Shown here: positions 13,592 to 54,896 of the stretch, piece after piece
Numbering within the stretch: position 1 is the first letter of the stretch
Layout of the letters: each line of letters begins with the position of its first letter
Program-made: the position numbers and the translations under genes
Source: Catajapyx aquilonaris
Taxonomy: Eukaryota
Assembly: GCA_000934665.2 (NCBI GenBank)
Contig: KZ538072.1
Span: 1-64,000 of the forward strand
Length of the DNA stretch: 64,000 bases
Direction of reading: 5' to 3'
Notes under the pieces: generated by a model
What the model was told of the DNA's origin: nothing
The model's input: only the letters and a program-made list of their open reading frames with translations
The model's database searches: none

Positions 13592-13632
13592 TCACATTGG
13601 TCTCCAACAAGTCTGACTCAAGTGCAACTCAC

Positions 13633-14034
13633 TGCATTTCCCAGAGAAAGTCCTCATATGTTGCATATTCATCATTAAGGATACATTCAGTGACAGCTTT
13701 GCTAAGGTAAATCTTCTCTAACACAGTTTTCATCTTGGAGGCATACTCCTCACTCGGCTTCAGTAGCTCATAGTGTGCCTGATCTGATGTAAATGTCACC
13801 TTGGGATCATCAAGGTCATACTCTGAAATCCACCACTGATGTATGGGTACAGTGTTGGACATTAATCGAGTCATACTGCTAGTGACATTTTCCGAAGCGG
13901 CAGAAGAACAAATCGAAGATATGGATAGTGCAAGCCGTGCAAGCAAGATTCGTTCTTCTGCCGCTTCGGAAAATGTCGCTAGCAGTATGACTCGATTAAT
14001 GCCCAACACTGTACCCCCACTCCAATCCTGTTAC
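13633..14034 (-). pseudogene. DNMT1 RFTS-domain-like exon disrupted by a MITE
   Basis: PIHQWWISEYD...FTSDQAHYELLKPSEEYASKMKTVLEKIYLSKAVTECILNDEYATYEDFL matches the DNMT1 RFTS pattern PI.EWWI..FD...A.Y.L..PS.EYA.......EKIY.SK.V.E........TYED; GTGAGT donor at 13632; candidate AG acceptor at 14035; MITE inserted at 13850-14011. Confidence 0.7.
13850..14011. mobile_element. palindromic Tc1-like MITE, copy 2
   Basis: Same family as 13071-13221, TA on both sides; inserted in the DNMT1-like exon. Confidence 0.8.
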
Positions 14035-15304: not shown

Positions 15305-15890
15305 TTACAGATGAGAAGGCAATGGCACACAACACTCAGTGCCAGGGTAGGATGGCAAACTCAAGTCATACTTTTTTTCTAGCTGCGGAGGAACAAATCG
15401 GCCACCCAAGTAGTGGAATCTGCCTCTAAATTTTGCAGCGCACTGCTTGGGGGCTGTTAGTGAAATAAGCATTTCTGGCTTCAAACCACCACCTTCCGGA
15501 CAACCTTTTTCAACATCCCATCCACTTGGGATGTCAATGCTGCACAGTGGTACGGTCACTGCCATCAAAGTTTCAATGACCTTCTCAAACTCAGGGCGAA
15601 CTGGCGGCTTGAAACTAAACCCAAATAGAGCATCAACAATCAGTCCAAAAGAACTCTGAATGTCACTGAGGCTTGGTAATGGTGAAACAATTGGGATTTC
15701 CATCAATTCACACTGCTTGGTCAGATTGTGAAAAAGAGGCTTATTTGGTTGCTTGGGGTAGAAAATGGTCGGTTGGTACCCAAAAAGCTTCAAATGCCGC
15801 GCACACACCAGACCATCGCCACCATTATTTCCTGGCCCACAGCATATCAAAACACCAGAGCGTCCTTCCAACTGCTTCACAGGATAGCAC
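15305..15890 (-). CDS. NAXE: NAD(P)H-hydrate epimerase (YjeF N-terminal family), last coding exon
   Basis: [56 protein letters not shown] and HYLGGRFVP motifs; acceptor ttgcctttcag at 15891; TAA at 15305. Confidence 0.95.
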
Positions 15891-16170
15891 CTGAAAGGCA
15901 AGTTGCCAGTAATTAATCTGTAACAAAGACTACGGCCCGTATCTTCGACGTCTTGCGCAAATATGCGGGAGGAGCCATAATCTTCCATAACTTTCCAATG
16001 GCGTTAATCCCTGACGCGGAATGAACCCCAGGAGTAGTTAATTTTGTTACTTAAAAATGTGATGATTTTTACTCTCGCTGGCAGAACCCTCTTAACGCCT
16101 CTCTGCGAACGCCTCCCACAGGTTTGCACGAGACGTCAAAGATTCGGGCCTAACACCGCAATAAACGCAC

Positions 16171-16295
16171 TTTGCTATTGCTGAAGCACAACTGAGACCT
16201 GCCAGTTCCATCAACTGATCCACACTGAATTGATACTCATTGAAAAGATCCTGATCTATCTGCACAGCTTCTTCTTGGCACAAAAACTTCACCAT
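16171..16295 (-). CDS. NAXE: NAD(P)H-hydrate epimerase, first conserved coding exon (may extend 5')
   Basis: [42 protein letters not shown]; phase-2 GT donor at 16170 joins 15890 in frame (AA+G = Lys); another in-frame ATG at 16310. Confidence 0.9.
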
Positions 16296-18607
16296 GGCTG
16301 CCTGTTTCATATGAAATCGAACCTGCGCCCTGTGGAAAATCAGTGAACGTCGGATGTACTGGCAGCTGTGGAATACACATACACATAAGACACAGTTGGG
16401 CAATGACAAGCATCTACAAAAAATTCAAGCAGTTTCTCTTTACCTACTCCACAATAAGACCATTCACGGCACGGCACTAATTCTGGTGGCAGGTTAGGCT
16501 TGATCTGTAATAAAACGTGAATTAAAAATTGTCTGGCGTACGTATACTCAAGATGAAGGTCAGGAAAAACAGTCCATGGTCCTCACAGCAGGTTGAACGA
16601 AGAAACATCACCGGTACAGGTCTTCACCGGTTTTCACACACCAGGCAGGCCACCATCTAAAGCTAAACCAGACTGTCCATCACCTGATAGCTAGTTGGCC
16701 AAATATCACCTAGCAGTGAACTTATAATAACTGAAATAGCGTCACAAGAAGCAGAAACAATTAAATTTTGTCCGAAATGTGGATATCTTGGGGAAATAGT
16801 ACTGTCGGTAAAGAGAGAAAAAAATGCTGGTTTCTTAATCATAATTACAACTCTTAATTACTGTATTTTATACATCTAAAAGAGTGGTGATAGCTAAGTA
16901 ACGGCTATTTATAGCTAGTTTTTGTGATCTGGAATATGAACTATCTTATTGAAAATTTAAAACCATTTAAATATTTGACGTAAAAATAAAATATCCACAT
17001 CCAAAAAACGATTCCTTAATGCAGACAAATTAATTGAGGATGCCGGGACTTAAGAAATGCAAAACTTTCTGCATAATATATTTATGACTTTCTAAATGTA
17101 TCTGAATCTGTCACTTGGCAAACGCGATCAGAATGATTTAGTTGAAAGTTTAATAGTCCACAATAAGTCAGAGGTCAGAGCCTTTGTTGAGGTGAAGAAG
17201 CCATGCCCTAATATTGTTAGACAAGGACGATACAGGCCTAAATGGTGATGATGATGAATATAATTATTGTATACGGTATTTTCAAACCATAATAAATGAC
17301 CTCACTACTACTCATTGATGGTATGCTACAGTAGGCATAAATGTCATTTACGTCCATATTTCATGTATGATAACAGCATGTAGCCTACAGTACAGTCCCT
17401 CGAAAAATAAGGTACAACCACACAGTGCCATGATTTGACAGAGGCTGCTAGTTTACAGATGACCAGGAAGATTCTGATTATTGACGTAATTGTAATGTTT
17501 AGGTTCATTTTTTTGCATGATTATTAAATTAACATAAAATTTCCATTTCCACCTAGAGCAAGATGTTTCGCATTCAAATGATACACAAAAAAACAGCATT
17601 GAATTTTTAAAATCAATATTATTAGAAGACATCCAGAGGAAATTATTGTGTCACAGCTAAACCGCTTCTTAGGATTAATGTTTTTTTGGACTCAAGGAAT
17701 TGCCGATGTGGGATCCTCAGCTTATTATGATTCCCATTTATTAGTTTTGTGCACCGTTTTAAAAATTATTATTTGGTTGCTTTCTAAGCTTCTGTAGAGT
17801 GTTGCTAAAAGAACTGAGCACATACAATAATATTTCTTTTTATTTTGCTAATGGTCTCTCAAAGCTGCTGGTTTGTGAGATTATCTGACTTTCAAACTCG
17901 TCAAGAACTAGTATAGATGAAAATGTTAGAATTTGCTTATAGCAAGCAAGTGGTTGTTAAATCAAATCGTTGAGTTGGCTAGACAGTGGCTAAACACCTA
18001 CAACAGCAAATAAGCTTAATGATATTAATATAATTTATTACCATATAAATTAGATAACAAATAGTCGAGTCAGATTCTTCAGAGTTACTACGAACACGTG
18101 GCAAGCTCTGGTTTTAAAGCCATCGTAAACTCTATAATTAATTATTACTAATCTTGCGGAACACAGTTAACCATTTCTCACTGTGATATTTTCAATAGTC
18201 ACAATGATTCTCAACTAACCTTCAGTTACTGTTATTTAGGCCTACCATAATGTTTGTTTTACAGCTCATACTATACGTACAACGAAATGCTCGACTCCAA
18301 GTCGCCACTGCATAAGCGGAAATAGTCTACCATTAACAATATTAGCCTATACTTGATAATAATTTAGTCAATAACAAATTCGAATCCTCTGTAATATAGG
18401 CCTACACTACTGTTAAGTCGCACTTGTTAGCTACTTACGCATATTTCCTTTTTTACACGTTGCCGTACATTAACGATCATGAGTCAGGTTGAGCGACAGT
18501 AATCATCATCGGAAGAGGTTCGTTTTGTCACGTTCATCGCAAGAGTTGCATCATATGTATATCAATGCAGCAATATTGTGAAGCCATAAACCACGGTACA
18601 AGTATCG

Positions 18608-18640
18608 TATATATATCGGGGGTGCTGCCAAACTCAGCTA
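18608..18640 (+). promoter_or_regulatory. candidate TATA box and Inr of the small peptide gene
   Basis: TATATATA at ~18608 with TCAGC ~25 nt downstream, then CAACATG start context. Confidence 0.4.
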
Positions 18641-18649
18641 CACTTCAAC

Positions 18650-18960
18650 ATGAACTTCTTTACACTGCTTCTTGTTGTTCTTGCCATCCTTGCCGTTGTG
18701 ATGGTATGTCCTTCATATTTTTTCATATGGTATCAGAGATAACACTTTGGCTTTTTAATTCTTTCAGGCCGAAGTCATCCCGGGTAAGTAGAGCACCTAT
18801 TATATAATCTATAATAAGTACTGAATGTTAACTAGTGTATATTTCAATACACTTTGTAGTTCCTGGACATGGTGACCATGGGCATGGACATGGACATGGA
18901 CATGGACATGGCGGTCATGGCGGTCGTGGAAGGCACGATGACGATGATGGACCTTGGTAA
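18650..18960 (+). CDS. secreted Gly/His-rich peptide, 56 aa; exons 18650-18703, 18768-18783, 18860-18960
   Basis: Canonical GT-AG introns with matching phases give MNFFTLLLVVLAILAVVM-AEVIP-VPGHGDHGHGHGHGHGHGGHGGRGRHDDDDGPW*; hydrophobic signal peptide; additional 3'UTR intron 18969-19025. Confidence 0.8.
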
Positions 18961-20282
18961 AATTACAGGTAACCTCTGAGCCAGTGTTATTTGGGTTGTC
19001 TTACTAATTGCTTCATTATTTTCAGATGCCGTGAGCAGAACAATTTGGTGGAACTATGCAGGACATGATTTTAAATTGTATTAACTATGCTATGAAGAAA
19101 TATATTTAAATAGAGAAATATACATCATTATATTTATCTGGCAGCAGTGTTTATAATTACAATTCGATTCTTTTTCTGACTCATGAGGCATGACTCTATT
19201 GCTTCATACACAATTTCATTTTTAATGGGACACAGGGCTAATGTGGGTTATAATGCACCTCCCTATAACATTATACACTGACCTTCAAAGTATTGCCACA
19301 GATTGACATATATCATTGAAACCCATCCGATAGAGCTTAATTGAATTTATCCATGAGGAGCATACGCCTCCAGCCCCATTCATCAAACTTTCACGGGGTG
19401 TGAGGCATATTTCATGCATTTTGTCAGATAAAGCCCATGCCTTTCCTGTAGCAATTTCAAGTCGTATTACGCAGCGGCTCCAGAATAGAAATTCACTTTC
19501 TGGAAGCGATCGTTACTCAAGTAGAAGTTGAGTTTTTCAGTTGTGAATGGCCACATAGTTTTCTCAAACTGAATTATATTGCATCCGGTATTTTTCATCA
19601 TGTGCGTCGCTTCTATGTTGGTAATATAGTATTTGTGAGAATATATTTAGTACAACCAGCCGTTTGCAAATGACTAGCGAATTACGATTTTGTCTCATTA
19701 ATCGGGGAATTAACAAGATACCACAGGGGGATACCGGTACAATAATTTATTTCAGTTGACACGATTGTCGCAATTTAAGGATTGAAAATTAGTGTCCTCA
19801 TTAGTGTTCTCAGCATGGAAACAATAATAAAATCATGGCAAAAAATTATGGGTGATGTTATTTTTTGGAGTTCAGTGTTATGAACTTTAATGCTGCTTTC
19901 GGTAGAATATTATCGTCAAGTGTCATATTCGCATGCAGTAGACCTTTATTTCATGACTGCCCTCCAGTTATATCTTGCCGTAACTGCGCATCGGCTACTT
20001 GAAGCTTGATTGATACACCGAAAGGGATATATCATATAGGTTCTTTGTGACATAGCATTCCCTACAGATCTGATTCAGCAACTAATGAATGGGGGCGTCT
20101 TTAAGGAATACCTTTGCCCTTATGCATAAATAACAGCACCTTCTTAGCTGCGGAGATAACGTACACATCCTATACATCTTCACATAAATCAGGATGTATT
20201 GATAATTGAGTTTCTATAATATATGTTCCGGTTGCAATGGGTATTCCCGTTCGCACATCTTCAGCGTCAGTGTTATTCCAAC

Positions 20283-22274
20283 ATGGCACGTTTTACACTG
20301 GTTGTCCTTCTGTCTATTATTTTGGCTGTGTCAGGATGGATCGCAGTTTTAGAGGACAATCAGACTGACTCGCCACCTTTTGCTCTGATTCAGCTCATAT
20401 CAGACGTTGTCGCAGCCTCTCCAGGTTGCGACGTCATTCTAGCCCACGATTACGAGTCTCTTCCTCCAATGATTCAATCCCATCTGAATCAATTGAACAA
20501 CGAATTTCAAACGGTTATTTCCATCAAGTTTGCACCTGCTCTTGAAAGTGCTGACAAGGAGGTGGCAAATGTCACGATCATCGAGTACTGGTTCAGTTGG
20601 TTACATCGTTCCACAGCCGTAAAGTTAGGAACATGTGGCCTCCACATATTCTACTTTGAAGAAGCCAACTTTAAACTGCTGATGGAGCAGGTAGCGGCCA
20701 CATCGGTAGTGGACACATACAACGATCGGTTTATTTTGTGGAAACGTGATCAGACGGAGGAAGTCAACGAAATTTTGCTTCATCCTCATGCCAGTGTGCT
20801 CAAGTATAAGATGATGGCAGTTCCTAAAGGCGAAGATCTGACAATATTTTCGGTGTGCTTCTACTGCAATGGTGGTGAGCCGGAGGTGGTGAATGTTGGG
20901 GAGTACAGTGTGTACTACAATGCGTCTGAAAATGTGCTGGATTTATTTCCTGACTTGGCAGGAGACTTGAACGGAAAGTACCTTCTTGGAACTTTCATCG
21001 AACCTTTTGAACAGAGTGACACTTGGGAAAGGAAGAGAAACAGGCAGCCACTCTGGATTCCAGACCAATACATTATGGATTTGGGAATGAAATTAAACTT
21101 CAACTGGGATGTGAAAATGTTGGAGCTAGGGGATGCAGGTGTGGTAGAAACTCAGTTGGACGACGGTACGTGGTCTGGAATGATTGGGGAGGTTTTATAT
21201 GGCAGATACGATTTTGCAGCAGCCACCATCATGTCCGGAAAGGGAATGGATGTGGTCGACTACCCTGAAATTTACTATTACGATTATCTAACATTGCTGA
21301 CAAGGCGTCCTCATCCTCTGTACTCGTGGAAAGTCGTCCTTCAGCCTTACACAGCGTCCATGTGGCTCCTTGTGTTCCTTTCTTGTGTCCTCGGAGGACT
21401 TGCGTTTTGGATCATCCTGCATGCATCTCAACGGTCCTTGGGCAATTCCTTCGAGAAGAAGCCATCTGTTCCTCCTCTAATGTATAGTGTCGGGTACCTC
21501 TTCCTCACACTGATCGAGGAAAATCCCGAGGCGGTTCCTACTCCGCACAATGCCCGAGTTTTCCTGGCACTCTGGTGGACTTTCGCACTGGTCATCTCCT
21601 GTGGGTACACCAGCAAACTCATAGGTTTTTTAGCGATGCCGCCGAGAGAAGAACTTCCTACTGACTTCAGGGAAATGGTCTCGTGGAAGAACTGGGAATG
21701 GGGAGGCCTGTATACGCATGTTGTGTTTTATCAGATGCTGGTAGAAGACACGGACATAAGCCACCTACTAGCAGTTCAGCCGAAGTTTCAGTCTGTGGAA
21801 ACCATAAAAGAATGCGTGGGCAGGTGCATCAAAGAAGACTGGTCTTGTATTTCGATTCGTATCTACCTAATGGTGGCTGCATACCTATTCGTCGACATAG
21901 ATGGAAACATTCCAATGATAGAGGGGAGTGAAAACACGATTAAGATCTACTGCAGTATGATGCTACACAGGCACCACGTTTCCACTCCCAACATTGGAAA
22001 GGTTTCTCGCTATCTGTGGGACTCTGGGATCACCGGAACGTACGAAAGGTATTGCTACGATTCATACCTCCAAAGTGAGCTACTTGGTGCACGACTGGAA
22101 AACCGAAGAACTGAGGAGTCTCTGGCTCTTCGCTACCAGCAACTTCAAGGAACATTCTTCGGGCTTGGGATCGGACTGGCAGGGGGGCTAATCATATTGT
22201 TGTGGGAAATTTTCCACTACAGAGGAAAGAACAAGTTGAAAATGCGGAAGCAGGTTCCTCAAGTCGAAGTGTAA
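20283..22274 (+). CDS. divergent ionotropic receptor (IR), intronless, paralog 1
   Basis: Signal peptide MARFTLVVLL; S1 DGTWSGMIGEVLYG...VVDYP; M1 QPYTASMW; M3 FLALWWTFALVISCGYTSKLIGFL; pre-M4 LALRYQQLQGTF; upstream in-frame ATG at 20223 also possible. Confidence 0.9.
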   Translation: MARFTLVVLLSIILAVSGWIAVLEDNQTDSPPFALIQLISDVVAASPGCDVILAHDYESLPPMIQSHLNQLNNEFQTVISIKFAPALESADKEVANVTIIEYWFSWLHRSTAVKLGTCGLHIFYFEEANFKLLMEQVAATSVVDTYNDRFILWKRDQTEEVNEILLHPHASVLKYKMMAVPKGEDLTIFSVCFYCNGGEPEVVNVGEYSVYYNASENVLDLFPDLAGDLNGKYLLGTFIEPFEQSDTWERKRNRQPLWIPDQYIMDLGMKLNFNWDVKMLELGDAGVVETQLDDGTWSGMIGEVLYGRYDFAAATIMSGKGMDVVDYPEIYYYDYLTLLTRRPHPLYSWKVVLQPYTASMWLLVFLSCVLGGLAFWIILHASQRSLGNSFEKKPSVPPLMYSVGYLFLTLIEENPEAVPTPHNARVFLALWWTFALVISCGYTSKLIGFLAMPPREELPTDFREMVSWKNWEWGGLYTHVVFYQMLVEDTDISHLLAVQPKFQSVETIKECVGRCIKEDWSCISIRIYLMVAAYLFVDIDGNIPMIEGSENTIKIYCSMMLHRHHVSTPNIGKVSRYLWDSGITGTYERYCYDSYLQSELLGARLENRRTEESLALRYQQLQGTFFGLGIGLAGGLIILLWEIFHYRGKNKLKMRKQVPQVEV

Positions 22275-24183: not shown

Positions 24184-25480
24184 ATGTTTCTGGTCCGGTG
24201 TTACATCTTCCTGCATGTAATACTTGCAGAAAAGACGACCACTGCTGTCGACATTTTAAATGTACCATTATAAGTGACCAGGCAGATATTATCGACTCCT
24301 TGTTGTGCAACAATTCAATCTTGGAGAAGCAAGACTATATCCAGTTTTTCTTGGCCACGACTACCGCTCTCTTCTCTACGAATTGCAATGGTATCTGCAA
24401 AAACAGAGTGGTTACTATGTACCGGTCCTCACTCTTCAAATGTCAGAGAAGGGGGCTTTAGAGAAGAGTGTACACAACATGAGGACGTCAGTGAAAATTA
24501 TCGGTTCTCCTGGTTGCATCCTCACCAAGGTAACTGCATGGTGCATCCATTACATCCTCCTGTTTGAAGAAGGCAGCAATTTCCAAAATCTAATGGAGCA
24601 AGTGGCTGAAAAGGTGTACCACTCGAGATAAGTTCCAACTGTGGCCTAAAAATATGTCGGAAGATGCATATATCTTCGCTTATGCTTCATCCCCACGCCC
24701 ATGTGATCAAGTACAAGTTGATGGTGTCGCAGAAGACATCAGATGAGCAGTGGTTGTTCCAGTCCATATGTTTCTTTTGTGACAATGGTAATCCTAAGTT
24801 GGAGACCCTCGGAATGTACGACGTTAATTCGCAGCCGGTTGCTTCTCACTTCGGCCAGTATGTACCCTGACTATCAGGAACTTGTATGGTAAGTTCTTGC
24901 AAGGCAATGTTTCTCGCCTTCTGGTGGATCTTCGCCATGGTCATAGCATGTGGTTATGACAGCAAACTCATCGGATTCTTCATTGGCCATACCTGAGAAG
25001 GAGCAGATACCGTCGAACACACAGGAAATGACAGAATGGCCTGGGTGATCATGGGGAGGACAATACTCCCATGCCGTGTTCTACAACATGCTGGTTGAAG
25101 ACTCAAACATACCCTACCTGATTAAGAGCTTGGACAATATTCTGCACTGGGACACAATGGAAGAATGCCTGCAGGCTTGTCACTCCGGATTTAAGTTACT
25201 TGCTCGTCGCCTCTTATGACTTGGTCGGTGTGAATGGATACAATCCTTTGATGGAAAGTGAGAAAGACACCATTAAGATTCAGGCCAGCATGGTCTTACC
25301 GAAGCACTTTGTGGTCACTCCATCTATCAGTCAGGTGTCTGGTTATGTTTGGGCTGCGGGGATCATGGGTTATTATGAGAAGTACGTTTACTATTCTTTT
25401 CTGAGAAAAGGCCCGCTGCTGGACGCTAGGAACAAAAATCGAGAAATCATTGAGTCCCTTGCACTGCGACTTAAGCAACA
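24184..25480 (+). pseudogene. ionotropic receptor pseudogene with frameshifts, stops and a large internal deletion
   Basis: Collinear fragments HDY, FSWLH, NFQNLMEQVA, LHPHAHVIKYKLMV, CFFCDNGNP, GKFLQG, then directly FLAFWWIFAMVIACGYDSKLIG, HAVFYNMLVED and ESLALRLKQ. Confidence 0.9.
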
Positions 25481-32531: not shown

Positions 32532-34520
32532 ATGATCTGCACAAGCTACTTCTTGTCTTTGCTGCCTCTGGTTGCATCTCTGCAAATGTCTAACTCGAGT
32601 CTGGACAAATCATGGCCACAAGAATCGAGCAGTACTTACCAGAGCGAGTTAGTGACCAGCCTTTTGGCCACCTTGTTGGACCTAGAGGAACCGGAAGTGG
32701 TCTTCATCTTGGCCCACGACTACCAGGTTCTTCCCCACCATTTCCTGGACCTCTTGTATCATCTGCATCGACCATACATTCCGGTCGAATTGCCAGCACC
32801 GGACACACCCACTCCAGAGCCAGAGGTCAACGCCACTCGCATCATCTACTCCTTCTCATGGCTACAGGATCCAAATGCAAGAAGACCAGGCCAGTTGTTC
32901 TTCTTCGCTTTTATTTGTCACGTAGACAACTTGGGCCAGCTTTTCGAGACGGTAGCTTCCAAGATACAGATGAAACCTCCTCAAGATCGGGTTTTCTTGT
33001 GGAGTCGAGACCAACAAGTGGACGAGATGACGGTATTTATGCACGACCACGTGTACCTCTTCAGGTACAAGATGTTGGCTTGCCCCGGTGGTGAACAGGA
33101 TACGGCAGTGATTAAAATGTTGTGCGTGTACTGTGACAAAGGGAATCCGTTGGTGGTAGAACTTGATAGGTACATGATGGGAATGAATGCGACAGAGTTG
33201 GCACCTAATCTTTTTCCAGATACCACTGGTAATTTCCACGGACGTTTCATGTCTGGAGTGTTTATCGAGCCCTTCTCGCCAGCATCCCTCAAAGAGAAAA
33301 GAGAGTACGACTTGCCAGTCTTTGCACAAGAAGCCATTCATGAAGCTGTGGCTGAATCACTTAATTTCAATTGGGAAGTGCTGGCTTTAGACATGGGTGA
33401 GGAAGGAGTGGTAGAAACCCAGCTGGAAGATGGTACTTGGATGGGGATGGTAGGCGAGATTCTGTACCAACGAGCTGATTTTGGTCCAGCTACAATCTAC
33501 TCCGAGAAGGCTCTCCATGTGGTGGACTACCCTGTAGCTTATTACCAAGACTATGTCACGTACCTCACACGTATTCCGGATAAGCTATATTCGGCGAAAG
33601 TGATAGTCCAGCCGTACACTTATGATATGTGGATCTTGCTGTTCCTAGCGACTCTGGTGGTCGGAGTTGTGTACTTTATATTTCTGTGGACTCTACACCG
33701 CATCCATAACCCTTTCTCGAATCGTCAACCCAAAAACAATTTCTTGTACGCCATGGAACTGATTGTCCTAGCCTTGATTGAAGAAGGTCCTGAATACTTT
33801 CCTGACTCCTTGACAGCCCGCTTGTTTGCTGGCTTCTGGTGGCTAGTAGCTCTAGTAATCTCCTGCGGTTACAACAGCAAGATGGTGGCGCTTCTGTCTA
33901 TGCCAGAAATGGAGAAGCTGCCTGCCAACATCAAGGAACTAACGTCTAAAGATGAATGGCGATGGGGTGCTATGCATCTTCACGCTCTTTTTTATGATAT
34001 GCTGGTAGAGAACTCTCAGGATCAGTACTTGAAGAAAGTGGGTCCGAAATTGGAAACATTTCCCACATTGGAAGACTGCGTGAAGGAGTCGCTTCTTGAC
34101 GATTTTGCCTGCTTCTCTCTCAGGATTTTTCTGACATTGGTGTCCTTCCATTTCATTGATAAGAATGGCCAATTGCCCTTCCGACATGCGGAGGAGAAAG
34201 CTCTCGATGTCACTGCAGGATTTGTGCTGCCTAAGTACCACATCTCGACTTCAGCGTTTTCTAAGAAGGTGCGTGGGCTGCTCAATGGTGGACTTATCAT
34301 ACACTATGAGGATGAGATGAATTTCTTTGCCTTCATGCTTGGTCTGAGCTCGGCTAGGAATGTCAACTACGTGAAGCATCACAGCTTGGCTCTCAATTGG
34401 AAGCAAATGCAGGGACCTTGGTTCATACTGTGTGGAGGGTTGGGTGTCAGTTTGGTGATGCTCATAGCAGAAGTGGTGTCAAAAAAAGCAAGGAAGAAGA
34501 ACAAAAACTCATTTGCATAA
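32532..34520 (+). CDS. divergent ionotropic receptor (IR), intronless, paralog 2
   Basis: MICTSYFLSLL signal; DGTWMGMVGEILY, VVDYP, QPYTYDMW, FAGFWWLVALVISCGYNSKMVALL, LALNWKQMQGPW. Confidence 0.9.
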   Translation: MICTSYFLSLLPLVASLQMSNSSLDKSWPQESSSTYQSELVTSLLATLLDLEEPEVVFILAHDYQVLPHHFLDLLYHLHRPYIPVELPAPDTPTPEPEVNATRIIYSFSWLQDPNARRPGQLFFFAFICHVDNLGQLFETVASKIQMKPPQDRVFLWSRDQQVDEMTVFMHDHVYLFRYKMLACPGGEQDTAVIKMLCVYCDKGNPLVVELDRYMMGMNATELAPNLFPDTTGNFHGRFMSGVFIEPFSPASLKEKREYDLPVFAQEAIHEAVAESLNFNWEVLALDMGEEGVVETQLEDGTWMGMVGEILYQRADFGPATIYSEKALHVVDYPVAYYQDYVTYLTRIPDKLYSAKVIVQPYTYDMWILLFLATLVVGVVYFIFLWTLHRIHNPFSNRQPKNNFLYAMELIVLALIEEGPEYFPDSLTARLFAGFWWLVALVISCGYNSKMVALLSMPEMEKLPANIKELTSKDEWRWGAMHLHALFYDMLVENSQDQYLKKVGPKLETFPTLEDCVKESLLDDFACFSLRIFLTLVSFHFIDKNGQLPFRHAEEKALDVTAGFVLPKYHISTSAFSKKVRGLLNGGLIIHYEDEMNFFAFMLGLSSARNVNYVKHHSLALNWKQMQGPWFILCGGLGVSLVMLIAEVVSKKARKKNKNSFA

Positions 34521-36879: not shown

Positions 36880-38856
36880 ATGCTGTTCTTAGTGTTGATT
36901 GGTTTTGTTCTGAGTGTGCCAGGTGCGGCGTCTACTTTCGGTACTTTAAAACGAGCAGAAGAGTCCTTAGAGGCAACCCAACTTCTGGCTGATTTCATAG
37001 GGGATTTGGAAATATTTTATCCGGATTGCGTCGTAACAATAGCTCACGACTATGGAGTTTTGCCTGTGCCTCTGCAGCAAATTATTGCGAACAGATCAAG
37101 CAACAATGGGGGTATATCGATAACCGGATATGTCCATCAGGATGAGGTTGTTACGGAGGCTTCAGTGAATGCATCTTATGTCATAGAATATTGGTTTTCG
37201 TGGTTACATCGGGAGTCGACTGTGCATATGTCGAACTGTGCTCTTCATTTCATCCTGTTTCATGGCTCCAACTTTGCTGATCTCATGCTACAATTGGCGG
37301 CTCAAGTGTTGCTGAACACTCATCGAAACCATTTCATCCTGTGGAGCCCTGATGCAGATATGGAAGCAGTGCTTTTGAGTCCTCAAGCCCGCATTATTCG
37401 CCTGAAGTTGGGTGTAACCCCAGATGATTCTCTAAATCGCTTTAAATTGCAAACAATATGCTTCTTTTGCGCATCCGGATATCCTCAGCTTCTACACTTG
37501 GGACAGTACAGCGAAGATGGTCTGGAGGTGCAGGGTGGCTCCTTGTTTCCGGACACTACCAAGGACTTACACGGACAGATGCAAAAAAATGTGTATATTG
37601 AAGAATTCACCAAGGAATACCTCAAGGAGAAACATCGTGATGCCAAGCCTGTATTTGTGACAGAAGCAGTATTGGAGATGTTAGGTGAGTTTATGAATTT
37701 TGACTGGTACGTGGCTACATTGCCATCTGGTGACCAAGCAGCAGTGGAGACCCAGCGTGATGACGGAACATGGGCTGGCTACGTTGGTGAGCTTCTGTAC
37801 GAACGTGCTGACATGGGCGCCGGTACTCTCTTATTCTCCGAAGTGACCGCAATAGCAGATTATCCTCCACCATATTACCATGATCACTTGACCTTTTTTA
37901 CCCGAAATCCCCGTCCGGCTTACTCCTGGAAGGTCCTCTTCCAACCATACACAATGTTAATGTGGGGTCTTGTCTTCTCAGCCTGTTTCATATGCAGTGT
38001 CTTCTTTTGGATCTTGCTCAATCGTATACGACGTTTCAAAAATCCATTCCGTCTTAAACAACCTCGGCACCTATATGTATACTCCTTGGTTTACATGCTG
38101 TTGCCACTGATTGAGGAAAATCCACCTACAGTACCATCAGCCCATGCAGCACGAATCTTCTTAGCGTTATGGTGGCTCTTCGCAATGGTCATTTGCTGCG
38201 GATACACCAGCAAGCTCATAGGGTTCTTGGCGTATCCGGAGCTAGAGAAGTTGCCGCAAACTATTGATGATATTGTCACCAACGGCTGGACATGGGGTGC
38301 TCTCAACATTCATGCGGTGTTCTTTTTAACTCTCGTTGAACATGAGGAGAATCCCAACTACCACAAATTCGCTAATGAAATGGGGATGACCAGCACTATA
38401 GAAGAATGCATGGAGTACGCGCTGGTGGAAAACTATGGTTGCATATCCCTCCGAATCTTTCTGGTCCTCTGGTCCTATCAGTACGTGGGCAAAGACGGTT
38501 CGAATCCATTCATGAAAGCTGAGGAAAAGTCAATTACAGTGCAAGCAGGAATTGCCATGCCTAAGCACAATGTTCTTTCGGAAAGGGTCGCCTGGTTCTC
38601 GGAACAGATATGGGATTCTGGACTGCTCAGAAAGTTTGAACACGACTTGATCTATTACTCACGGTTCCAGGGTGTCATAAATGCGCGAAAGAATAACGTC
38701 GATAGGTCATTGTCCATAGCTCTCAATGTCAGACAGCTTCAAGGGGCTTTATATTTGCTTGCATTCGGTTGTCTTATTTCAGGTGTCGTGTTGTTTGTTG
38801 AGGGGTTCATGAAACAGAAGAATAATATCTTGCAGCGAAAACGGAAATTTAAATGA
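36880..38856 (+). CDS. divergent ionotropic receptor (IR), intronless CDS, paralog 3
   Basis: MLFLVLIGFVLSV signal; DGTWAGYVGELLY, QPYTMLMW, FLALWWLFAMVICCGYTSKLIGFL, IALNVRQLQGAL; polypyrimidine-AG at 36841-36859 suggests a 5'UTR intron. Confidence 0.9.
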   Translation: MLFLVLIGFVLSVPGAASTFGTLKRAEESLEATQLLADFIGDLEIFYPDCVVTIAHDYGVLPVPLQQIIANRSSNNGGISITGYVHQDEVVTEASVNASYVIEYWFSWLHRESTVHMSNCALHFILFHGSNFADLMLQLAAQVLLNTHRNHFILWSPDADMEAVLLSPQARIIRLKLGVTPDDSLNRFKLQTICFFCASGYPQLLHLGQYSEDGLEVQGGSLFPDTTKDLHGQMQKNVYIEEFTKEYLKEKHRDAKPVFVTEAVLEMLGEFMNFDWYVATLPSGDQAAVETQRDDGTWAGYVGELLYERADMGAGTLLFSEVTAIADYPPPYYHDHLTFFTRNPRPAYSWKVLFQPYTMLMWGLVFSACFICSVFFWILLNRIRRFKNPFRLKQPRHLYVYSLVYMLLPLIEENPPTVPSAHAARIFLALWWLFAMVICCGYTSKLIGFLAYPELEKLPQTIDDIVTNGWTWGALNIHAVFFLTLVEHEENPNYHKFANEMGMTSTIEECMEYALVENYGCISLRIFLVLWSYQYVGKDGSNPFMKAEEKSITVQAGIAMPKHNVLSERVAWFSEQIWDSGLLRKFEHDLIYYSRFQGVINARKNNVDRSLSIALNVRQLQGALYLLAFGCLISGVVLFVEGFMKQKNNILQRKRKFK

Positions 38857-42933: not shown

Positions 42934-43006
42934 TTCCTCGTAGCTTAGTCGGAAGAGCACACTTCTAATACGAAGTGCGGCCCGGGTTCGAACCCCGGCG
43001 AGGATA
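42934..43006 (+). pseudogene. tRNA-like sequence (pseudo-tRNA or SINE head)
   Basis: Acceptor TCCTCG/CGAGGA, D arm with TAGCTTAGTCGG, T arm CCGGG-TTCGAAC-CCCGG; anticodon arm is non-canonical (CACTTC-TAATAC-GAAGTG). Confidence 0.55.
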
Positions 43007-43050
43007 CAATTTCCTATCTGAACCTGCACCTTGTTGATTATATTGCTAGA

Positions 43051-46429: not shown

Positions 46430-48320
46430 AAGGTCATCGTGCTCGCCTGAAAGAAGAAGACGTCACTCCAGAAGGTCCACGTGGATGCCTATGTACACCT
46501 CGAAGTGCTAGAGAACAGTAAAAAGGCACCTTTTACGACATACATCTTGGTGGACATACCACTGCGAAGAATTACGTCCCAGCGAAAATGACACCAGTCA
46601 ATCGTTGGTATTTGTATGTACACTTAAGAAGATAATGCAATGAGATGCATTGGTGAAGGTTTGCTGTGTATACGCTATGTTCCTTAGCCCAGGATGGCCA
46701 AAAATAACTGGTCATTGGGAATATTAACTCCTTTGACAAAACTGTCCGTTTCTGGCCTATTTACTCAAATGTGATCAAACAGGATATTTTGTGTTAGAAG
46801 AGCAAACAAGGACCTTCGCAGCCTTTGGCAAAAGGTGCGTACATGCGGAATATTTTCTTTGACGGACAGCTTTGCGGAAATTGTAAATGCCTCGGTGTAT
46901 TATATTTAAAAAAAAGCCCTCGAGTGTTCTCATTAAATTGACATACTTGGAACGAGGCAATTACTAAAATCGATATGCTTCGTTATGAAAATGAAACTTT
47001 GCGATTCAGTATGCAGAGCAAAGCAGCAGGCTTTTAAAAGCTTTTCCTATCGCCAAATTTCATGCTCAAAACCCCGTGTAATCAGTTTACTGGCGTCCTG
47101 CATGAGCGGAAATAAAATTCAATTACTGAAAGGTCAGGAAAATCCAGACTGAAACTAATCTGCCAGGATCAGTCAACCCCAAATGGCATTCTCAATAACA
47201 GCATCAATCGGGCAGAGCTCGGATCATAACAAGCCATTGAGATTATTACAATCAAAAGCTGCAGTGTGTTCCGGAATCTCATCTTGTCCAGATTTTTCCG
47301 TGGTCCATCAGCATCCAAACCGAAAAAAATAGCGAGGCTCGAGCTGTCAAGAGAGCTATCCGTTGACAGTGATGACAAAGACTGTCATGGAGTTGCTCTC
47401 TTTATGGACGAGCTGGATTTCAACCTCTGGGGCCAGCTAGCCTTTTGTAAATAAGATTGTCTGTATTTATGTGATAAAAAAATGGGTGGGGGGGGGCGAT
47501 TAAATACTCTCCTGACACTAATCAGCATGATTTTACAGGTCTTTCATGGAGCGAATCGCATTGGGTGATGTCATCCTCATGAGACAAATGCCCATAAGTT
47601 GAATAGCACTCTGGATGCAGAGGTGAAAAAGCTTCAGGGAACACTCTTTTACTGGCTCAATTCCCTTTATGGATCTTCAACATTCATCCCAGAGGGCTTT
47701 CAAACCCTGCACTCCCCACTCTTTTAAATTCCAGTGGATACTGCAAGTGTTGCATGCCAACTCAATGGAGAAGCCCTTTGTGTTCCAAAGGTTGGTGAAA
47801 TTTTAATGTCTGAATTAAAACTGAGTCCCAGTGTTGTTTGATTGTGCACACTAGTCTGAAGTGTAGTTTGACTGGTGGTTATCTTGTAGCTTACATGGAT
47901 TACTACTGACAAAATAATACTTAACATGTTCAAAGCTGTAGCAAGCAGTTCAGAGGCATTCCATGCATTAACCATAGATTATGGTTTTTCACAATACTGT
48001 TCCTGATCCCCACAGCTGAGGAGTGTTTTTTGTATATGATCCCAATAGGGGAAGCCATACGAATTAAATGGAGTTGATTTCAAGTGGGACTGTAGTGAAT
48101 ATAAGGTCAACAACGTGATGTGTCCAGCAAGAACCTGGTCTTCGTGCAAGTCAAATGCTGGCAACTTCTGTTTTCTGTCGTCACCTCCACTCGAGCTTGC
48201 ATGGAGATGAGCAGTAGTTGGACTTAATGTGAATGTTACATTAACCTGCCACATGTTGAAATCTGAAATAGTGATGGGCCCTACTATACTTCCAGGTTGC
48301 CACAGCGTCCCTAGTTGAAA
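46430..48320 (+). pseudogene. possible decayed LRR-Ig gene (LRRNT, LRR, LRRCT and Ig fragments)
   Basis: Collinear, stop-ridden fragments after AG acceptors: PEGPRGCLC, KKLQGTLF...LNSLMDLQ, WWLSCS, GKPYELNGVDFKWDC, VVGLNVNVTLTC. Confidence 0.3.
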
Positions 48321-52577: not shown

Positions 52578-53911
52578 TGATAGTACAAACACATGGAACT
52601 CCAAACCATGATCACTTTGTCATAAAAATTAGAAGTCATTTACCTTATTTGAGAAAAGATTGTTCAATATCAACATTCTGAATCATCTTTAAAAATGGTA
52701 CCAGATTATGGAGATAAAGAGCTTTATACTTGAGGGGGTTAAAATCATAAACCGACAGCTGCAGAAAATAAAAAAATGAGTTAGCGCCGGAAATGCATTC
52801 CTCATGCCATGGACTACATAATACCTGAATATGGTATCAAAAACCCTACATATGTACATGGGAATAGCCGCTACATTCAGGTATCTACGTTGACATATAC
52901 GGCGAAACTGTAGGTTTTTCTCGTTTTTTTCCGTTACGTTTATGACGGAGTTGTCGGTTTTTGATTTTAATCCCCTCACTAATAGCAGTGATTCTAATCA
53001 CAGTCAGTCAAACACATGTAGAAATGGTTGTGAAATATCATAAGGATTCTGAGGCTTCATATGGACCACCACCACCCACCTGCCCACCAAATTTGGTTGG
53101 CATCAGAGAAAAAGTGAAGCCAGTGCTTGTTGGTATTTGCCAGTAGCTGTCAGAATTTTTGACCTCACTATACGTACTAAAAAGCATATCCTCCAAGGAG
53201 ACAAGTAAAACAATGTGTACTTGAGAATCACAATAACTGTGGAAAAGGTTGCTGCTCAATTCAGCACTCTCCAACACCTCCATGTGCAGACTTTTAACAA
53301 TGGAAATCTGTGCACCTGAGATGGATACCATTCTACAGGTGCTACCTTCAGAGATTGAACATATTTCATTCACTTTTGCCTTCACCTGCAGGCTCCAAGT
53401 TAGACTCTAGTTTAAACCTTCAACTCCTTCCTTGCCAATGTGAATGTATCATGTGTTTCATAATTGGGTTACATTCATATCAGTGACCATGTTGTCTACC
53501 ACTTTCTTATCAGTGGCAACTTAGGATGATTGGACTGCATGCCCACATTACAGAAGCAAGTGCTTCAATATGACTCAGCCTTACCTGATGAGGTAGTGTC
53601 ACACAAGTCTAAGACTTATTAAATAATTCACTTCATATAATATGGCTTCACTGACATGGGAAGTAACTAATCAATTGACTAAATTAAAAGGCACAAAATA
53701 TTGTTGTTGTGAATTTCAGGACACTACAATACTCCCATCGGTTGCCAGGCTGTTGAGGAGGTCTGACTACTTAGCTTTGCCATTTTGCAACTCAAGCCTT
53801 CTGATATTGATAAATACTCATTCAAGGCATTACTAATTATCACCCCATAAATTTCAATATAGGTATTGTTGTAAACTGCAAGCCTTGAATAATGATATAA
53901 AGTGCCCTTAC

Positions 53912-54394
53912 CTGTACAGCTTGGGCAGCAGCTAGCTGGGTTGCAGCTGCTGTGGCACCCAATGAACCCAGAACCACACGTTTCCCTAGCAGAGGGTTTG
54001 GCTGCACTGCCTCCTTGGGTTGTGCCTTTTTGCATTCTACTTTCTTGTTCTTGATGGTGTGGAAGTGGATTTCACAAACCCGATCAACGACCTCTTCACT
54101 CTCAAAGGTGACAAAGCCAAATCCTCGGTGGCGCTTTGTCTGCTGGTCCATCAGCATTACTGCTTCCTCCACTTTGCCAAACTGATTAAAGTAAGCCTTC
54201 ACTTCATCAGCAGAGGTCTCTTGACTCACGCCACCCACAAATATCTTCTTGGTCTTGTTGGCCTTGCTGCGGTTCTTTGGTGTAGCATGCTTGGGATCTA
54301 TTTTCTTCCCATCTAGAGTGTGGGTAGGCACCTGCAACACCTTGTCCACACAACTTGGATCAGCAAAAGTAATGAAGCCAAATCCTCGGCTTCG
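53912..54394 (-). CDS. msi: musashi, RRM1 (second half) and RRM2 exon
   Basis: [10 protein letters not shown]...[16 protein letters not shown]...KIFVGGVSQ...[11 protein letters not shown]...[22 protein letters not shown]; phase-0 acceptor at 54395 and GTAAGG donor at 53911. Confidence 0.95.
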
Positions 54395-54896
54395 CTGCAA
54401 AAGAAATTGGATGGTCAACTTTTTGCTCTGTTGCTGCTTTCATGCTGCAAAGATTATTGTGAGACAGTTCTTTCCACCTACAGTTCTTGAATTGTGTGTT
54501 CTAAAAACATTCTATTATTCATTATTGCCACTGACATTCTCCAACAATTTAGAATCACTGAGCTTATTATGAATTGTAGACCCTCTCTTCATAAGAAAAA
54601 TAAAAACCTTCACATAAATTACATTGAATATTGCTTTGAACAAATCACCCTACTATATCACTCCACACTTTTTGCTCAAGTAGGCTACAAAAGATAGATT
54701 GAATGTCATTTTTTTCTGTGGGATATTTTAGAGTAGCCAAACATCATGTACTGTCACCATTGCTCATAACATGACCAGGACTATCTCCAATAGTTGCAAC
54801 ACTTATTCTTCAACTACATTATAATACAACCATTGACTTTTTTGTGCAACAATGAGACACTATGATTTTTTTTGTGAAAACAAGGACTGGGGGAGG

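Follow-up and report, generated by a model that had tools for sequence, protein, structure and literature searches.

A transcribed four-exon gene with a 16-nt micro-exon for a predicted secreted Gly-His peptide in Catajapyx aquilonaris

A four-exon gene on the forward strand of contig KZ538072.1 of Catajapyx aquilonaris (GCA_000934665.2) is separately transcribed and spliced, and the spliced product contains a frame for a 56-residue pre-peptide whose predicted mature part is dominated by Gly and His. The gene is located in the first 64,000 nt of the contig, the whole of which was analysed and is called the window below. Zinc- or copper-binding host defence is our best guess for the function of the peptide, on the analogy of other Gly/His-rich peptides. 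The gene was invisible to ORF-based tracks, could be recovered from the raw sequence and was then confirmed by a public transcript contig, a way of working which could be used in annotating small secreted peptides of poorly studied arthropods.

The gene model was read from the sequence, with coding parts of 54, 16 and 101 nt and introns of 64, 76 and 57 nt. A TATA-like element (TATATATAT, 18608..18616), a candidate promoter element, is present upstream of the start codon; TATATATA starts at 18608, 28 nt upstream of the A in an Inr-like TCAGCT (18634..18639), and this A (18636) would be the transcription start. The usual TATA spacing is about -30, and the spacing between the two elements agrees with it. 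The coding part of exon 1 (18650..18703, 54 nt) begins in the context CAAC-ATG and encodes Met and 17 residues of a hydrophobic, predicted signal peptide. After intron 1 (18704..18767, 64 nt, GTATGT..TTTCAG, phase 0) follows the micro-exon (18768..18783, 16 nt), which supplies the closing Ala of the predicted signal peptide, the predicted cleavage site, mature residues 1 to 4 and one base of the codon after them. It is flanked by a phase 0 and a phase 1 intron, and since 16 nt is not a multiple of three, skipping of the micro-exon would shift the frame.

Intron 2 (18784..18859, 76 nt, GTAAGT..TTGTAG, phase 1) is followed by the 101-nt coding part of exon 3 (18860..18960), which encodes the Gly-His tract, the RGRH patch, DDDD and the GPW end and includes the TAA stop (18958-18960). 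The first 8 nt of the 3'UTR (18961..18968) complete exon 3, which ends at 18968. Intron 3 (18969..19025, 57 nt, GT..AG) is within the 3'UTR, 8 nt past the stop, and thus without a coding phase. The terminal exon (19026..19850) would hold the remaining 3'UTR of about 0.8 kb, with its end placed by prediction; its longest ORF has at most 32 codons. An AATAAA at 19826..19831, read directly, is likely the polyadenylation signal of the gene.

The splicing was revealed by contigs of one public run (X1), which comes from a single study with the library type unrecorded and contains 0.38 of the sampled words. One contig of 934 letters has no mismatch to the locus and bridges all three introns, with the micro-exon included. 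It joins 18673-18704 to 18859-18965, the latter with no other letters, through 14 letters equal to 18769-18782, which is the interior of the micro-exon; the flanking G's are common to the intron ends. Both introns 1 and 2 are missing from the contig. It then skips 57 nt and continues through 19023-19500, and when the cut is shifted by +3 the joint is at 18968|19026 with GT..AG ends. About 303 letters more follow past 19500, which would bring the contig to about 19803 if it is colinear. The locus is covered by X1 from 18646 on, with 18646-18704 covered at exon 1, while 18300-18645 and the three introns are without cover; the lack of cover upstream of 18646 was not taken as evidence of the start site.

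The initial annotation had proposed this structure, and it was confirmed. The TATA-like element and the CAACATG start were found on direct reading where it had placed them, the 54-nt signal-peptide exon, the 16-nt micro-exon and the 101-nt exon agree with both the sequence and the spliced contig, and all three of its junctions (introns of 64, 76 and 57 nt) are carried by that contig without mismatch. The mature string given there is identical to the last 37 residues of the 56-residue spliced translation. Its statement that all intron phases fit holds for introns 1 and 2 (phases 0 and 1) and does not apply to intron 3, which lies outside the coding part.

No ORF in the modelled mRNA is longer than the 56-codon frame, which opens at the first AUG. 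Classical signal-peptide precursors have a hydrophobic core of 10-15 residues and small uncharged residues at -3 and -1, and these features are present here, with a hydrophobic core followed by small residues at -3 and -1 (V-M-A) before the first charged residue. The leader has a mean Kyte-Doolittle hydropathy of 3.17 (residues 3-18), and among the 2765 ATGs on both strands of the 64-kb window it is the only one with 18 open codons and a mean hydropathy of at least 3.0, a threshold chosen post hoc, once the 3.17 of the ORF itself was known. Judged from these features, the predicted signal peptide has 19 residues and would probably be cleaved off as the chain enters the secretory pathway. The start codon stands in a favourable context, CAAC-ATG, which is shared by the first of the ionotropic-receptor (IR) genes downstream; the remaining two carry CAAA-ATG and AACA-ATG.

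The locus might instead produce a spliced non-coding RNA, or an mRNA with an unproductive ORF, in which the Gly-His frame would owe its existence to a (CATGGA)n microsatellite, although we think this unlikely. The ORF, stop included, occupies only 171 of about 1018 nt, and the long 3'UTR of about 0.8 kb behind it could also fit a non-coding RNA with a chance ORF. About one third of the ORF is hexanucleotide repeat, which has no stop whichever of the three frames is read and yields a second, overlapping ORF of 52 codons (Met-Asp frame) in the same mRNA, and protein searches returned no homologue. Because the ORF is short, the repeat is open in every frame and this second ORF exists, the open frame argues little for coding by itself. 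The position and context of the start codon and the uniqueness of the leader speak against a non-coding RNA, as does the micro-exon, by which the cleavage motif of small residues is set precisely where the hydrophobic core ends. The repeat units point in the same direction. Seven consecutive CATGGN units from 18868 vary at the sixth base only (T, G, A, A, A, A, C). Changes at this base are synonymous in the Gly-His frame, where it is the third position of Gly, and would replace a residue in either of the other frames; by our own rough estimate, a synonymous-only pattern has a chance of about 0.01 if the changes are random.

The predicted mature peptide has 37 residues and a mass of 3.8 kDa (average mass 3799.8 Da unmodified), with 13 Gly, 9 His and 5 Asp, so that Gly and His make up 59% (Gly 35%, His 24%). 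It is probably disordered and has a short Pro-rich N-terminus, after which come a His-Gly run closed by two GGH units, a small patch of basic residues and an acidic tail with four Asp. Tandem Repeats Finder reported (CATGGA)x5.8 at 18877-18911 and (CATGGCGGT)x2.6 at 18907-18929, both on the forward strand, and the whole repeat (18877..18929) encodes the (HG)n/GGH tract, in which the HG dipeptide is the main unit and only two GGH units follow. Neuropeptide-type processing features were absent from the sequence, with no Lys, basic residues in R-G-R only and no dibasic (KR/RR) site, and no C-terminal Gly followed by basic residues, the amidation signal, was observed.

We regard it as roughly an even call that this gene encodes a secreted Gly-His peptide that defends the host by metal binding in a body fluid or a secretion. 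The mRNA of about 1 kb would be translated from the first AUG into the 56-residue pre-peptide, and cleavage of the signal peptide would release the 37-residue peptide. Its nine imidazoles, at every second or third residue, could bind Zn(II), Cu(II) or Ni(II) and would be protonated below about pH 6. The computed pI is 6.09, with a charge of about -3.4 at pH 7 and +3.0 at pH 5.5, and thus the peptide, net anionic at about -3 at pH 7, could become cationic on acidification or metal loading. Defence might then consist in depriving microbes of zinc or copper, or in an attack on microbial surfaces triggered by metal or pH. The anionic character at neutral pH counts against this reading, since most antimicrobial peptides are of the classical cationic type. 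The antimicrobial, metal-binding or cuticle-hardening roles named in the initial annotation were drawn from composition and are taken here as candidate roles.

The same chemistry, with nine His among 37 residues, spaced i+2, and an acidic tail, would serve a secreted peptide for metal handling, and composition alone cannot tell this from defence. Outside the cells, in haemolymph or gut fluid, such a peptide would buffer, carry or detoxify Zn, Cu or Ni, a role that would suit the absence of cationic amphipathic character at neutral pH. We nevertheless consider it improbable, and no arthropod metal carrier of this form was found in the literature searched. The upstream region decides little here. 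In the 1 kb upstream (17640-18640), no match to TGCRCNC, the metal-response consensus, was found, nor to three kappaB-type, heat-shock and ARE consensus patterns, all of them insect and vertebrate forms; TGCRCNC occurs at 0.42 per kb in the window and the window rates of these motifs are below 0.5 per kb, so their absence is uninformative. Three GATA sites were observed in the same 1 kb against 1.98 per kb in the window, which is about background.

Within host defence, a more specific and rather doubtful idea is that the gene is a young, lineage-restricted orphan, formed when a (CATGGA)n repeat was captured behind a signal exon and a frame-setting micro-exon, and that its product is a self-contained zinc switch, antimicrobial only at acidic or metal-rich sites. 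The His-Gly tract would load Zn(II) or protons and in this way activate an otherwise anionic, Asp-tailed peptide. If this is true, the principles of histidine-rich peptides and of zinc-dependent anionic peptides would be united in one molecule of 37 residues, and changes in repeat number could tune it quickly.

A structural additive was also considered, in which the peptide would be a His-rich cross-linker for metal-coordinated hardening of cuticle, mouthparts or a secreted matrix. Gly/His-rich proteins take part in metal-mediated hardening elsewhere among invertebrates, as the jaw proteins of polychaetes do, but the known structural examples are much larger proteins. The peptide has no Tyr or DOPA-type cross-linking residues, and no chitin-binding or other domain was found in it by Pfam, and we rate a structural role as quite improbable.

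Three intact intronless IR genes are located downstream, the first of which starts at 20283 on the same strand, 1.3 kb away, so the statement of the initial annotation that the peptide gene lies just upstream of a chemoreceptor cluster was borne out. For the first IR gene, no match at E<=1e-10 was obtained among the 7999 candidates scored. The four exons could hardly be an upstream leader of this IR gene with the small frame as an upstream ORF, in spite of the same strand and the 1.3 kb to its start codon, as the X1 contig is unspliced across at least 475 nt of the terminal exon (about 780 nt by length, ending near the AATAAA at 19826), the IR ORF begins with a CAAC-ATG of its own and has an AT-rich TATA-like sequence upstream of it, and no joint into the IR gene was seen in the X1 contigs over the stretch compared, which extends to 19500. 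Since the AATAAA (19826) comes before the IR start codon (20283), the Gly-His gene and the IR gene are taken as separate units.

Other coding segments of the window include an exon of the DNMT1 replication-foci domain (13629-14030) and a NAXE-like exon, whose best identity was 70% among 5315 matches at E<=1e-20. In a NAXE tree of 34 rows, with 33 named rows picked by hand from the best 120 of the 5315 matches and no crustacean or myriapod rows, the window row was on the insect side (support 92/81) with a long branch of its own (0.69). An Atlas comparison of NAXE did not narrow the taxon. From its sequence the host was judged to be a protostome, probably a pancrustacean arthropod, and Drosophila-like Diptera, which are not known to have DNMT1, were rejected on account of the DNMT1 exon.

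Relatives of the peptide were searched with a 42-codon stop-to-stop frame (18832-18957), in which the first 10 residues are intron-encoded and 32 residues of the peptide are left. There were no matches at E<=10 among proteins of 23-74 residues, where 389 candidates sharing short words were scored, and none at E<=0.001 when 1.84 billion representatives of any length were searched. Pfam gave no family for the Gly-His peptide, and Atlas gave no usable match, with a low recognition value of 1269. A single PDB chain, an NDUFX subunit (E=0.26), was taken as a compositional match and set aside. In metagenome contigs, neither 36 nt from the 3' end of the coding part, searched as an exact string, nor a degenerate pattern for the last 11 residues was matched. 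Within the 64-kb window, blastn of the locus and 3'UTR returned chance matches only (up to 31 nt) and no paralogue, and a six-frame scan for Gly/His runs returned this site only. The protein searches also gave no detectable similarity to holotricin-3, tenecin-3 or shepherins, at low power, because the query is short (32 residues) and of low complexity.

If the peptide is made, it would be a very compact addition to a scattered, convergent class of secreted His-Gly-repeat peptides. No new kind of biology is opened by the gene. With only 37 residues the peptide is within reach of synthesis, so the ideas of zinc chelation and a pH switch could be tested directly for this class.

By its exon structure, the gene could be compared with the micro-exon genes (MEGs) of schistosomes, in which most of the coding sequence is in many symmetric micro-exons of 6-36 nt with combinatorial skipping. 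The predicted secreted product, the signal-peptide first exon and the very small internal exon are alike, whereas the gene here has a single micro-exon, whose 16 nt are not a multiple of three. With only one asymmetric micro-exon, a gene of the schistosome type was ruled out.

A similar architecture is known from dipteran saliva. The GH-repeat family of Simulium and the Gly-His-rich peptides of Anopheles darlingi and Culex are secreted salivary proteins with HG/GH repeats; they are restricted to lineages, 'with no other sequence similarities' from one group to another, and their authors suggest zinc chelation and, with it, an antimicrobial effect (PMC3285218, PMC2644710). From these accounts, secreted Gly-His-repeat peptides are a recurring, uncharacterised class in arthropod secretomes, so the peptide described as new in the initial annotation is new as a member and not as a kind (PMC3285218, PMC2644710). 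The dipteran GH-repeat and 'H-rich, acid' salivary proteins share with it the order of a signal peptide followed by an HG/GH repeat, and an acidic character, a likeness of architecture only which is not proof of descent. As they are described, the Simulium proteins are longer and have extra repeats (HPH, QPE and others), while the 37-residue peptide has no HPH, QPE or PKP; they come from salivary glands of blood feeders with a putative function. They were set beside the peptide by their descriptions, and the general searches showed no sequence relationship.

Shepherins, which are Gly/His-rich and antifungal with a GGH motif and effects of Zn(II) (PMC10004757), are also short, linear and dominated by Gly and His, with 28 and 38 residues against 37 here (PMC10004757, PMC5031766). 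In the same accounts they are largely unstructured and active on fungi and Gram-negative bacteria (PMC10004757, PMC5031766). They differ, as far as these accounts go, in being plant peptides with GGH as the main unit instead of HG and with no acidic tail; their Gly content is about 66-68% against 35%, and a pI of 7.28 is given against 6.09. Holotricin 3 and tenecin 3, antifungal peptides of beetles, are secreted arthropod peptides of low sequence complexity, and any resemblance to them would be limited to composition. Holotricin 3 has 84 residues, about twice as many, with 64% Gly and a pI of 7.41 (PMC5031766), compared with which the peptide here is shorter, less Gly-rich and more acidic.

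Alloferon 1 and 2, immunomodulators of 12-13 residues from the haemolymph of Calliphora vicina after bacterial challenge, also have His-Gly units at two- to four-residue spacing, but their HG units are separated by Val, Ser and Gln in the description of one review, and studies of Cu(II) complexes of alloferon are cited in the reference list of that review (PMC10904621). The surfactant-associated anionic peptides (SAAP) are short Asp homopolymers which kill only with Zn(II), and they share an Asp run and a net anionic charge with the predicted peptide (PMC10004757). As described there, they are mammalian and have seven residues with 5-7 Asp, while here four Asp form the tail of a longer peptide, and so the analogy is one of mechanism only. 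In that sense SAAP offer a possible model for the action of an anionic peptide that carries a zinc-binding tract of its own.

The micro-exon gene model that the initial annotation proposed for a secreted Gly-His peptide (18650..19025) was verified; it is one that ORF-based tracks miss. Upstream of the gene, on the same plus strand, a TATA-like TATATATA element beginning at 18608 and an Inr-like TCAGCT (18634-18639) were read from the sequence, as was the start ATG at 18650 in a CAAC-ATG context. Exon 1 (18650-18703, 54 nt) is followed by donor GTATGT and intron 1 (18704-18767, 64 nt, GTATGT..TTTCAG), and the micro-exon (18768-18783, 16 nt) by donor GTAAGT and intron 2 (18784-18859, 76 nt, GTAAGT..TTGTAG). 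Exon 3 runs from 18860 to a TAA stop at 18958-18960 (101 nt including the stop) and extends 8 bases further before its donor, which places intron 3 (18969-19025, 57 nt, GT..AG) within the 3'UTR. All of the exon and intron sizes first proposed were present in the sequence, and the mature peptide first read is identical in every letter to the last 37 residues of the spliced frame of 56 codons. Tandem Repeats Finder reported (CATGGA)x5.8 at 18877-18911 and (CATGGCGGT)x2.6 at 18907-18929.

Splicing was revealed by X1, the sole sequencing run returned by the public-run index, which held 0.38 of the sampled words and whose library type is unrecorded; no run with words of the locus was recorded as RNA. 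Two X1 contigs match within 18300-19500 with 0 differing letters. One, of 934 letters, covers 18673-18704, then 14 letters of the micro-exon interior, then 18859-18965; after this 57 nt with GT..AG ends are skipped, and it resumes at 19023-19500 and continues for 303 letters past 19500. The three junctions set for testing at the outset were all found together in this assembled contig, and the GT..AG polarity of the skipped introns gives a plus-strand transcript. The second contig (82 letters, fold-back) spans 18646-18702, including the ATG. Expression rank is not derivable from X1 contig depth. Since the library type is unrecorded, DNA without exactly these three introns is kept as a formal alternative, and intron-less DNA of that form would itself be a copy of spliced RNA.

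The peptide is probably made. In the modelled mRNA no ATG precedes the start of the frame and no ORF is longer. The frame's CAACATG start context is shared with the first ionotropic receptor (IR) gene downstream, the other two having CAAAATG and AACAATG. This ATG is the only one among 2765 on both strands of the window with 18 open codons and a mean hydropathy of at least 3.0 over residues 3-18, a threshold set post hoc, once the value of 3.17 for this ORF was known. The micro-exon supplies an Ala that creates V-M-A at -3 to -1, between the hydrophobic core and the first charged residue. In seven consecutive CATGGN units from 18868, variation is confined to the sixth base; such changes are synonymous in the His-Gly frame but alter residues in the other two. 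Against coding, the frame is short, a repeat with no stop in any frame takes up one third of it, and a 52-codon Met-Asp frame overlaps it in the mRNA. An untranslated RNA is an unlikely reading.

The predicted mature peptide (37 residues, 3.8 kDa, computed pI 6.09) contains 13 Gly, 9 His, 5 Asp, 3 Pro, 2 Val, 2 Arg and one each of Glu, Ile and Trp, without Cys, Lys, a dibasic processing site or an amidation signal. The computed charge falls from +4.9 at pH 5 through +3.0 at pH 5.5 and -1.9 at pH 6.5 to -3.4 at pH 7. The product is a small, histidine-titratable peptide with an acidic tail, probably disordered. A Pfam search gave no family. The Gly-His query had 0 matches at E<=10 among proteins of 23-74 residues and 0 at E<=0.001 among 1.84 billion representatives; the Atlas search gave no usable match, and the PDB a single chain at E=0.26, read as a compositional match. 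Metagenome contigs had 0 matches to the exact or degenerate pattern of the C-terminal end, and no paralogue lies within the 64-kb window. Absence of relatives is weak evidence here, since the usable query comprised only 32 low-complexity residues.

The NAD(P)H-hydrate epimerase (NAXE) gene (exons 15305-16424, minus strand; YjeF_N E=7e-34) lies upstream and is transcribed divergently, about 2.2 kb from the peptide gene. No database protein exceeds 70% identity to its product: the protein library contains no close relatives of this organism, and evidently not its own proteome either. A 34-row NAXE tree without crustacean rows placed the window on the insect side (support 92/81). The host is taken to be a protostome and probably belongs to the pancrustacean arthropods. 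A DNMT1 replication-foci-domain exon (13629-14030, minus strand, E=4e-13) is found still further upstream. Inside or beside it, an inverted repeat (13845-14016; 70-nt arms, 96% complementary, 32 nt between) makes the same residues readable on both strands; it may be a duplication that forms a hairpin, or an artefact of assembly.

Downstream, the chemoreceptor cluster described as directly following the peptide gene was indeed found on the plus strand from 20283. Three intact, intronless IR genes (20283-22274; 32691-34505, starting at about 32.5 kb; 36886-38847) form a tandem cluster, each gene having 663-690 codons and 36-38% identity to the others, with Pfam Lig_chan (E=1e-10 to 1e-14) and Lig_chan-Glu_bd. 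A decayed copy (24344-25478, plus strand) is broken up across several frames, with roughly residues 211-425 missing. The first IR gene had no relative at E<=1e-10 in a large protein library, which makes the cluster a very divergent, lineage-specific expansion. Elsewhere, a complete mir-46/mir-47/mir-281 family hairpin, a protostome marker, is present at 47335-47415 (plus strand, 66.2 bits; gathering score 44.7). A tRNA-like element (42934-43007, plus strand, Rfam tRNA 46.2 bits), for which ARAGORN called a four-base anticodon loop with no assignable amino acid, may be a tRNA pseudogene or tRNA-derived repeat. A large exon (53840-54439, minus strand), matched twice by RRM (RRM_1 E=5e-22), resembles an hnRNP/Musashi-type RNA-binding protein. 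N runs at 1023-1112, 30668 and 63855 (92 bases in total) are assembly gaps or masked bases.

His at every second or third position is a usual way of coordinating Zn(II), Cu(II) and Ni(II), and His titrates near pH 6, which accounts for the calculated charge switch. Once secreted, the peptide would take up metal or protons through its His tract and would act in host defence. From this chemistry and the published comparable peptides, a secreted defence peptide that responds to metal or pH is favoured, with an even chance of being right, the step from composition to function being conjectural. The same His spacing would serve a metal buffer, which is improbable. A structural cross-linker is less probable still. 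The upstream kilobase gave no guidance: a scan for metal-response, kappaB-type, heat-shock and ARE patterns found none there, and GATA sites were at background rate. A leader of the receptor gene is very improbable: the 934-letter contig would end at about 19803 if colinear with the genome, AATAAA was read at 19826-19831 (plus strand) and the next start codon is at 20283, so the mRNA is modelled as separate from the receptor gene, about 1018 nt long, of which roughly 0.8 kb is 3'UTR, and with a predicted 3' end.

As to known gene types, a schistosome-type micro-exon gene was ruled out by exon structure, as there is a single 16-nt exon, its length no multiple of three. Detectable similarity, the only membership test able to show descent, was lacking for every family considered. 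Shepherins of plants, described in passages of PMC10004757 as 28 and 38 residues long, with a GGH motif, antifungal and antibacterial activity and Zn(II) effects, are alike in size and chemistry, whereas the present peptide is built on HG, contains far less Gly and has an acidic character. The same passages report mammalian Asp-only SAAP peptides active only with Zn(II), and a part of PMC10904621 describes alloferon (13 residues, His-Gly-spaced), found in blow fly larvae after challenge. The closest match by architecture is the dipteran salivary GH-repeat/H-rich acidic group, for which the authors, in parts of PMC3285218 and PMC2644710, suggested zinc chelation as an antimicrobial principle; the present peptide lacks the other repeat regions of that group, and, being very compact, suits a trial of the zinc-chelation idea for such repeats. 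It is a new addition to an already known, convergent kind of secreted Gly-His-rich peptide.
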